The notes under the pieces: generated by a model
Database searches by the model: none
What the model was told of the DNA's origin: nothing
Seen by the model: the letters and a program-made list of their open reading frames with translations, nothing else
Position numbers and translations under genes: made by a program
In this document: positions 12,742 to 13,593 of the stretch, in pieces
Position numbering within the stretch: position 1 is the first letter of the stretch
Layout: each line of letters opens with the position of its first letter
NCBI GenBank assembly: GCA_021513715.1
Contig: CP084167.1
Coordinates: forward strand, 1,504,001 to 1,568,000
Reading direction: 5' to 3'
DNA from: Candidatus Heimdallarchaeum endolithica
GTDB lineage: Archaea > Asgardarchaeota > Heimdallarchaeia > Heimdallarchaeales > Heimdallarchaeaceae
DNA: 64,000 nucleotides

Positions 12742-13593
12742 CTATTTTAACAATGCAAAAACAATCCACAATATAGAAATAATTATTGCTGAAAGGATAT
12801 TGAATACAGAATACAATTTTAGAGTGTCATCAAAGTATAAATCATCAATATATTTGCCTATAGAATTTAACCTATTATCAATAGAGTACAATAAAGAGCT
12901 CTGTTTTGTTATTTCTCTCTTATTTTTTTCAGTTGATGCAAAAATATCAATAAAAGCATGTAACATTTTTTTATCTTGTTCCAATACTAAAGTTGAACTT
13001 ACTGACTCAAGTTTTTTATGCAGTTCCTCAATTTGTTCTCTTGAAAGAGCAGGTATCTTCCAAGAATAAGTTTCACTTGCTATTTTTCCAAGATGGTAAG
13101 CAATATCATCAATGTATATATCAAATGATATGGGTTGATAGTTTGTTTGATCTATCATTCTAAAGAACTGTAAATCTAAATCTTTTTTATTTTCGTTTTG
13201 ATAATATTTCAATGGATCTACAACTAAGGCTATAGCTTTGGGGAACAAGTTTTGATATGTTCTTTGTGTGTTTTTATCTGTTCCTGATAGAAAACACCCA
13301 TAACCAGGATGAGTATGCCACCAACCAACTATTGTTTGCTCACTATCTTGCTCTTGTAACTTCATTACAATATCAACTAAAGCTTCATCATCCATTACAA
13401 CAAAAGTACTCGTTTGTTGTTGCTTACCAGTATCGATATCTGTAATAATAAGCTGCCCAGTATCTTGTTTAACATACCCTATTAGTAAACCAGCCGATTC
13501 TTTTGATGTATCCATTCTATCAACAGTTAATATTTTTGCTAAAGCAGTTGCAGACAACAAAATTTCAATTTCTGAAGGTTCAGTCATTATCAA
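12742..13593 (-). CDS. JAMM/MPN+ metalloisopeptidase (Rpn11/CSN5-like) with C-terminal transmembrane anchor
   Basis: ESAGLL (catalytic Glu), VGWWHTHPGYGCFLSGTD, ALVVDP; hydrophobic tail VFNILSAIIISILWIVFALLK. Confidence 0.9.
   Translation of the reverse strand: MIMTEPSEIEILLSATALAKILTVDRMDTSKESAGLLIGYVKQDTGQLIITDIDTGKQQQTSTFVVMDDEALVDIVMKLQEQDSEQTIVGWWHTHPGYGCFLSGTDKNTQRTYQNLFPKAIALVVDPLKYYQNENKKDLDLQFFRMIDQTNYQPISFDIYIDDIAYHLGKIASETYSWKIPALSREQIEELHKKLESVSSTLVLEQDKKMLHAFIDIFASTEKNKREITKQSSLLYSIDNRLNSIGKYIDDLYFDDTLKLYSVFNILSAIIISILWIVFALLK

Follow-up and report, generated by a model that had tools for sequence, protein, structure and literature searches.

Among JAMM deubiquitinases, AMSH, AMSH-LP, and Sst2 work with ESCRT at membranes. 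AMSH has no anchor of its own but is brought there by its ESCRT partners, and it carries an N-terminal MIT domain and a K63-selecting Ins-2. Eukaryotic Rpn11 (PSMD14) and CSN5 are obligate subunits of the lid and the signalosome, each working with an inactive MPN partner (Rpn8 or CSN6) in a PCI complex; both have Ins-2 and lack a transmembrane (TM) helix. The JAMM1 desampylases of haloarchaea and Pyrococcus share the fold and the motif but are short, soluble, and devoid of helices after the catalytic core (PMC6043591). A different solution is found in the ER form of USP19, a eukaryotic deubiquitinase with a cytosolic domain held on a C-terminal anchor (10.1101/2020.10.05.326363, PMC9842591), which belongs to the unrelated USP cysteine protease family.

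The best PDB match to the protein considered here is CsRpn11 of Ca. Caldiarchaeum subterraneum (PDB 6FJU, 6FJV, 6FNN, 6FNO; PMC6043591, PMC5654768). This stand-alone archaeal enzyme comes from a host with ubiquitin, E1, E2, RING proteins, and a ubiquitin precursor, and it matures pro-ubiquitin and cuts conjugates (PMC5654768, PMC6043591). It is 202 aa long, was purified as a soluble protein, and is encoded beside the ubiquitin operon; the paper describing it never mentions the membrane, leaves residues 174-202 without a position in the crystal, and places Asgard JAMMs near Rpn11 (PMC6043591).

No tail-anchored deubiquitinase of the JAMM family or from archaea was found in the searchable literature. 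Likewise, no membrane-anchored Asgard JAMM is described in the full-text searchable literature, outside which most subscription journals lie, and the papers on CsRpn11, Asgard ESCRT, and Heimdall SNAREs contain no mention of one. Published Asgard work addresses gene clustering and recognition of ubiquitin by UEV proteins and discusses no membrane-bound eraser (PMC9192718; 10.1101/2023.07.25.550441). The Heimdallarchaeum protein described below has a topology that appears in none of the searchable papers and a chemistry that is ordinary for a JAMM. With tail-anchored deubiquitinases already known in eukaryotes, it is best seen as a familiar enzyme in a new arrangement rather than as a novel type of system.

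A JAMM protein with a hydrophobic C-terminal tail

The window, a 64,000-nucleotide stretch of the single-contig, 3.33-Mb genome of Ca. Heimdallarchaeum endolithica, contains the gene on its reverse strand, where the open-reading-frame list confirms a frame at 12742-13593 (-). The start is likely the ATG at 13587, two codons past the TTG at 13593. This ATG is preferred because the resulting 281 aa equal the length and start of the Ca. Heimdallarchaeum aukensis ortholog, a protein of the same length that is 93% identical. A scan for bacterial promoters and terminators performed no better than chance level. The relevant features are as follows.

12742..13587 (-): tail-anchored JAMM/MPN+ protease gene, 281 aa, with ATG at 13587 and stop at 12742-12744 (from ortholog length and start)
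13114..13566 (-): MPN/JAMM catalytic domain, about residues 8-158, with Ins-1 at about 55-66 and no long Ins-2 (Pfam JAB, PDB sequence and fold matches, model)
13498..13500 (-): catalytic Glu30, invariant in two alignments
13276..13317 (-): zinc-binding motif His91-x-His93-x7-Ser101-x2-Asp104, invariant and equal to the CsRpn11 set
12808..13107 (-): helical stalk, residues 161-260 (model helices, heptad check), differing widely in length among lineages
12751..12807 (-): C-terminal transmembrane anchor (residues 261-279), with two more residues before the end of the protein (hydropathy; character kept in orthologs)
13666..14703 (-): APH/choline-kinase-like gene directly upstream, a conserved neighbor in Heimdallarchaeaceae and Kariarchaeaceae (association only)

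Pfam JAB (PF01398) covers residues 9-116 (E=3e-14), and Prok-JAB also matches. The intact JAMM motif reported in the initial annotation is borne out: E30, H91, H93, S101, and D104 are all present, paralleling E24/H83/H85/S93/D96 of CsRpn11 (PMC6043591), and none of the catalytic Glu, His-x-His, Ser, and Asp positions varies across a phylum-wide Asgard alignment of 30 sequences, which includes orthologs at 26-33% identity. In a PDB sequence search CsRpn11 ranks highest (E=4e-23), followed by yeast and human Rpn11 (1e-17 to 1e-19), with weaker matches to CSN5 (about 1e-12) and AMSH (1e-7 to 1e-10). The fold search agrees with this ranking (Foldseek TM-scores by target of 0.84 for 5U4P_B and 0.81 for 6FNN_B). 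Matches to proteasomal Rpn11 run the full length of the protein at an rmsd of 9-19 A; therefore, only the MPN core superposes.

Judging from these matches, the closest solved relative is archaeal CsRpn11, not Rpn11, CSN5, or AMSH. The two proteins share the catalytic set, Ins-1, the absence of a long Ins-2, and helices after the core, and the Heimdallarchaeum protein is nearer to Rpn11/CSN5 than to JAMM1, as expected of a CsRpn11-like enzyme. The earlier statement that the protein is very close to Rpn11/CSN5 is correct for the motif but too strong for the domain as a whole, which is 32% identical over 145 aa to a eukaryotic-type Rpn11 and matches CsRpn11 better (4e-23 vs 6e-19). The AlphaFold model (mean pLDDT 78.5, pTM 0.57) has a short hairpin at 138-153 in place of Ins-2, and there is no inactive MPN partner among the two MPN genes found in the genome. 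The comparison with AMSH does not survive as kinship, given that AMSH scores far below CsRpn11 and Rpn11, and that the MPN domain begins at residue 8 with no MIT domain before it and no long Ins-2 in the model. The 281-aa protein is best classed as a predicted zinc (iso)peptidase of the JAMM/MPN+ family, of the CsRpn11 type.

What sets the protein apart from CsRpn11 is a stalk of about 100 aa ending in a terminal TM, together with a gene location outside the ubiquitin operon and a phylogenetic position outside the CsRpn11 clade. The helical linker and extreme C-terminal hydrophobic segment noted at first reading are both recovered. After the MPN core, the model contains helices at 161-170, 183-195, 203-218, and 229-280, the last of which shows heptad character in a heptad check and continues into the hydrophobic segment. 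The best 19-residue Kyte-Doolittle window comprises residues 261-279, all uncharged, with a score of 2.63 and a summed Hessa scale value of -2.26, and it ends two residues before the C-terminus. No signal peptide is present, as had been proposed, because the first 60 residues reach a Kyte-Doolittle maximum of only 1.2. (TM calls throughout this work derive from hydropathy scales rather than a dedicated TM predictor.) The terminal tail is more than would be expected by chance, since only 28 of 2558 proxy genes in the host genome have a single TM at most 10 aa from the C-terminus, and most of these, inspected by eye, start with a signal peptide. The protein thus has a single TM at its extreme C-terminus and no signal peptide, which is the sequence pattern of tail-anchored proteins.

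Spread and phylogeny of the anchored form

The distribution of the tail was surveyed with a phylum-wide profile search of 379 genomes, combined with extracted loci and a hydropathy script. Among close homologs (E below 1e-28), the terminal TM is present in 55 of 57, and the two exceptions are either shorter or diverge past the catalytic domain. Overall, a tail-anchored JAMM occurs in 15 Asgard families (f1-f4, f7, f10-f16, f25, f26, f32), or about half of those scanned, so the tail passes the survey of orthologs that the initial annotation had asked for, and over a breadth that it overlooked. Records with the anchored form include Kariarchaeota FT_008, Freyarchaeota SQRJ_82, Jordarchaeia RPF2 and QZM_A3, Jordarchaeum LHC_1308, Baldrarchaeum yapensis, Hermodarchaeota FT1_005, Helarchaeota Hel_GB_B, and Odinarchaeota J65. 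Many of these homologs are only 26-33% identical to the Heimdallarchaeum protein. Stalk length is highly variable, giving proteins of 220-350 aa, and the TM always ends a few residues from the C-terminus. It is conserved as hydrophobicity, not as sequence, with a mean top-residue share of 0.33.

Among the genomes examined, those of the Hod, Loki, Borr, and Sif types gave no anchored copy. No TM occurs in any JAB match of a closed genome of the Hodarchaeales family (four copies), two closed f18 genomes (four and three copies), one f17 genome (seven copies), or one genome of the Borrarchaeum family (three copies), nor in the top-scoring JAB matches of six f19 genomes or in Sifarchaeum. The anchored form is therefore widespread but patchy in Asgard archaea. 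Some genomes carry two tail-anchored copies (L074 and L075 in the Hel_GB_B family; L063 and L064 in f7). One Jordarchaeales copy (L300:3203-3802, -), nested among anchored copies, has lost the TM and has a strongly basic tail.

The initial annotation had suggested an MPN phylogeny, and the resulting tree qualifies its placement of the protein. The tree was built from 49 sequences and 145 columns under LG+G4, with AMSH and BRCC36 left out and a bootstrap that had not fully settled. Anchored copies form two groups, one confined to the host's own order (90/95) and another holding the rest, including two TM-less copies (93/94); a single clade of all anchored copies is neither rejected by the tree test (p-AU 0.195) nor demonstrated. 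Eukaryotic Rpn11 and CSN5 form their own clade (100/98), and the CsRpn11-type enzymes group with a soluble operon copy from Freyarchaeum (99/95), with the Heimdallarchaeum protein outside both and the deeper forks lacking clear support. A larger quick tree is compatible with this topology, and in neither tree was an archaeal sister to eukaryotic Rpn11/CSN5 recovered. On this evidence the protein appears to be a relative of Rpn11 rather than a demonstrated ancestor.

A TM is absent from all 22 complete Caldarchaeales-type homologs. The 22 complete CsRpn11-type JAMMs of Caldarchaeales/Aigarchaeota (among L122, L124-L127, L131-L149, L153, L155, L157, L160) end instead in a Lys-rich amphipathic helix. 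These tails, whose sequences are related, have a mean hydrophobic moment of 0.665, compared to 0.543 +/- 0.131 for the tails of neighboring proteins, and all are net positive. By eye the helix resembles a MinD-type membrane-targeting helix, a likeness that serves as a lead only.

Ubiquitin genes and gene neighborhoods

A search for ubiquitin, E1, E2, and ESCRT genes, which the initial annotation had called for, found the full set in the genome. The ubiquitin cluster contains two ESCRT-III genes, a Vps4-like gene, E1, and a UEV-Vps23-Vps28 fusion, and the genome also encodes E2 and a second UEV protein. Its sole ubiquitin is a 78-aa precursor that must be processed because a single residue, Phe, follows the GG. 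There are seven RING-like matches with modest Pfam scores. Three of the seven proteins have a TM helix with the RING at the C-terminus (G000 C1:3025442-3026452, 1202384-1203595, and 725380-729321; L008, L007, and L013), and these are candidate receptor-type membrane E3 ligases. One of the three is 1313 aa long and comprises a signal peptide, TSP3 repeats, a TM, and a C-terminal RING-like domain. The tail-anchor insertion machinery that such a protein was expected to need is also present, in the form of a Get3-like ATPase, which matches ArsA at E=6e-83 and has CxxC plus a hydrophobic insert, and of an EMC3/TMCO1-like insertase; Get3 in Heimdallarchaeota has been reported already (10.1101/810531).

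Two JAMM/MPN genes were found in the genome, both encoding metal ligands. The second is soluble, 351 aa long, and belongs to an operon (G000 C1:531553-534414; L002, L256) in which it is flanked by a ThiF E1-like gene on one side and, on the other, by the gene for a small Ubl-like protein distinct from ubiquitin. This Ubl-like protein is 88 aa long and has a single residue after its VG; a small E2-like gene completes the operon. Pfam did not confirm the small Ubl as UFM1. Because this second JAMM sits in a separate Ubl operon, the anchored enzyme is by elimination the better candidate for ubiquitin. The genome also has three ThiS/SAMP-like genes, and no short JAMM-1 was found in it. Other deubiquitinase families (UCH/USP, OTU, C48) gave no match in eight genomes, although the UCH and OTU searches were silent in the controls too.

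Comparable inventories were drawn up for other Asgard genomes. The case for ubiquitin as substrate is clearest in a closed 1.4-Mb Odinarchaeia genome (G289, 98% complete), where neither JAB nor Prok-JAB matches anything but the anchored form and where ubiquitin is extended by four residues. This sole-JAMM status holds in G289 and G005. Its extension to many genomes was rejected after Prok-JAB revealed extra short JAMMs in G043, G051, G094, and G284. Short Prok-JAB proteins are separate genes in some Asgard genomes with the anchored form, and several other genomes also carry such a protein. Freyarchaeum has an anchored copy plus the soluble operon copy, and several lineages encode ubiquitin that already terminates in GG. 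No ubiquitin match turned up in the two genomes that lack any JAB match (G295, G001), nor in a Thor-type genome (G297) whose sole JAB is short and weak.

Some distance separates the anchored gene from the ubiquitin-ESCRT cluster (about 186 kb) and from the ubiquitin gene itself (about 190 kb). Across 150 loci, E2, E1, and ubiquitin genes adjoin soluble JAMMs only, and no anchored copy among the loci examined resides in a ubiquitin or ESCRT operon. The direct ESCRT link first suggested for the enzyme thus finds no counterpart in gene order. Instead, neighbors vary by lineage. In Heimdallarchaeaceae and Kariarchaeaceae, and not in other Asgard lineages, a gene for an APH-like kinase that retains the conserved kinase motifs is the immediate upstream neighbor, mostly at a distance of 9-106 bp. 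Genomes of the Odin, Baldr, Jord/Freyr, and Hermod types instead have a conserved pair of genes (about 410 and 258 aa; L190:5848-7870, L192:5969-7988, L191:4558-6536, L195:2622-4634) just upstream of the anchored JAMM, often after AdoMet synthase. The pair received no Pfam or Atlas assignment, and a relationship to the kinase-like family was ruled out (hhalign probability <=0.2%). One genus of Kariarchaeaceae has a PilB-type ATPase gene immediately before the anchored JAMM and two T2SSF genes close by (L302:8374-14799, L304:8366-15583). Downstream of the Heimdallarchaeum gene, a thioredoxin-like ORF (11805-12638) is not part of the unit, because among the loci examined it is confined to this genus. 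Elsewhere in the window, a paralog of the kinase occurs 35 kb away (48715-49800, -), and a charged repeat protein gene plus three unannotated genes (15056-19010) are divergent from the kinase gene, with a similar block in a related genus.

Candidate roles of the anchored enzyme

We consider it probable (roughly 70%) that the protein is a cytoplasm-facing, membrane-tethered CsRpn11-type enzyme that both matures the ubiquitin precursor and removes ubiquitin from membrane-proximal conjugates. In this scheme, the Get3-like ATPase and the EMC3-like insertase would probably insert the protein post-translationally, tail last, leaving the MPN domain facing the cytoplasm on its stalk with one C-terminal helix fixing the enzyme to the membrane. 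Ins-1 would guide binding of the ubiquitin tail, and a zinc-bound water would cleave after the diglycine. Such an enzyme could mature the precursor and could also strip ubiquitin from membrane-proximal conjugates, counteracting the RING-like ligases that are bound to the membrane. Removal would then control the time over which a membrane protein remains exposed to UEV-Vps23/ESCRT or to degradation. It is likely that the anchored enzyme cuts the ubiquitin of its own cell while membrane-bound; that ESCRT cargo provides its main substrates is suggested more weakly. AMSH would be a functional analog only if this explanation holds.

Modeling is consistent with action on ubiquitin. When residues 1-175 were modeled together with ubiquitin from the same genome, the complex scored 0.83, versus 0.00 for the best of three controls, with at least 99% contact agreement among runs and a partner pLDDT of at least 90; the mark applied was reached by 58 of 80 solved pairs and 2 of 110 mismatched pairs. 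Ubiquitin residues 69-78 lie across the active site, with the tail on E30/H91/H93/S101-D104. This result should be read as likeness, not binding, because the CsRpn11-CsUb complex has already been solved (PDB 6FNN) and the model might draw on memory of it. Maturation of the precursor is the simplest job for the enzyme, and one that the initial annotation overlooked. CsRpn11 sets a caution in this regard, since a Glu immediately after GG blocked its cleavage (PMC6043591). Here the residue after GG is a Phe with a terminal carboxylate, and a carboxypeptidase or the second JAMM could trim it instead. Maturation is also not the sole reason for the gene, because Freyarchaeum keeps both copies and several lineages encode mature ubiquitin. 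Retention beyond maturation favors deconjugation at the membrane, without naming substrates.

Several other explanations deserve consideration. The substrate of the tethered enzyme might lie outside the ESCRT-ubiquitin system, being SAMP, another Ubl, or some membrane-proximal protein, perhaps with the kinase-like protein or type IV pilus components as partners. The lack of linkage between the anchored gene and ubiquitin genes would fit this explanation, as would the conserved kinase-like neighbor in two families, the PilB-type ATPase and T2SSF genes in the one Kariarchaeaceae genus, and the three ThiS/SAMP-like genes in a genome without a short JAMM-1. We nonetheless find it unlikely, as these neighbors change from lineage to lineage and none explains the conserved tail, and the genomes with no JAB or only a weak short JAB also gave no ubiquitin match. 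CsRpn11 rejects SAMPs (PMC6043591), which also speaks against the desampylase role proposed earlier for this CsRpn11-like protein, and the ubiquitin complex model (0.83 vs 0.00) points the same way, subject to possible memory of PDB 6FNN. It is more improbable that the enzyme is a housekeeping ubiquitin maturase or recycler that the anchor merely parks at the membrane, for example away from soluble proteasome-bound conjugates, with neither membrane-specific substrates nor an ESCRT role. This explanation overlaps with the favored one in chemistry and differs in purpose. The C-terminal helices of CsRpn11 are dispensable for catalysis (PMC6043591), the anchor has been lost inside supported clades (in the one Jordarchaeales copy and in family f17), and Hod- and Loki-type genomes in which no anchor was found have ubiquitin, all of which agree with parking. 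Yet retention of the anchor in 15 families despite drift of the stalk implies selection for location, the genome has membrane-bound RING-like proteins, and the TM-less CsRpn11-type relatives may bind membranes too, through the Lys-rich amphipathic helix at their C-termini.

Even the membrane location can be questioned, as the hydrophobic tail might instead be a helix buried in the helical bundle of a soluble complex, in the manner of the Rpn11 and CSN5 C-terminal helices in the lid and signalosome. Rpn11 is indeed held in the lid by its C-terminal helices (PMC6043591), heptad character is seen in the stalk, and the fold matches to proteasomal Rpn11 extend over the full length. But those matches superpose the MPN core only, at an rmsd of 9-19 A, and a run of 19 uncharged residues with a favorable insertion score, always placed a few residues from the C-terminus regardless of stalk length and conserved in hydrophobicity rather than sequence, makes a buried helix very hard to credit. 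The first reading of this protein as a membrane-tethered, catalytically intact JAMM accordingly finds agreement in the hydropathy, the spread of the tail, and the invariant residues, which together point to such an enzyme.

If the proposed role in ubiquitin maturation and removal is accepted, the locus bears on whether Asgard ubiquitin marks membrane proteins for ESCRT as it does in eukaryotes. A putative deubiquitinase tied to the membrane in 15 families, and the sole detected JAMM in G289, offers evidence at the sequence level that ubiquitin is handled there, and suggests that the cytoplasmic side of the cell membrane may be where archaeal ubiquitin is trimmed or taken off. As a reagent, the tethered enzyme in a catalytically dead form could trap membrane substrates. 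On a broader scale, one could speculate that a membrane-tethered Rpn11-type deubiquitinase in the last common ancestor of most Asgard archaea, along with membrane-bound RING ligases and UEV-Vps23/ESCRT, made up a complete write-read-erase ubiquitin cycle on membrane proteins before eukaryotes arose, and that membrane association (by the Asgard TM and perhaps the Caldarchaeales amphipathic tail) is ancestral for the archaeal Rpn11 group. We regard this proposal as tentative and, on balance, doubtful.

Bathyarchaeia, Thermoplasmata, and bacteria also have proteins that combine a JAMM with a TM, but in other layouts. In those of Bathyarchaeia and Thermoplasmata (L163:620-2203, L167:5941-7224; P0207, P0211) the TM is internal and a long C-terminal region comes after it, as in a receptor, and related copies terminate at the TM. 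JAB proteins that have a TM, some of them also a LysM domain, are represented by P0060, P0063, P0064, and P0066 and by three loci from bacterial records (L177, L183, L184).
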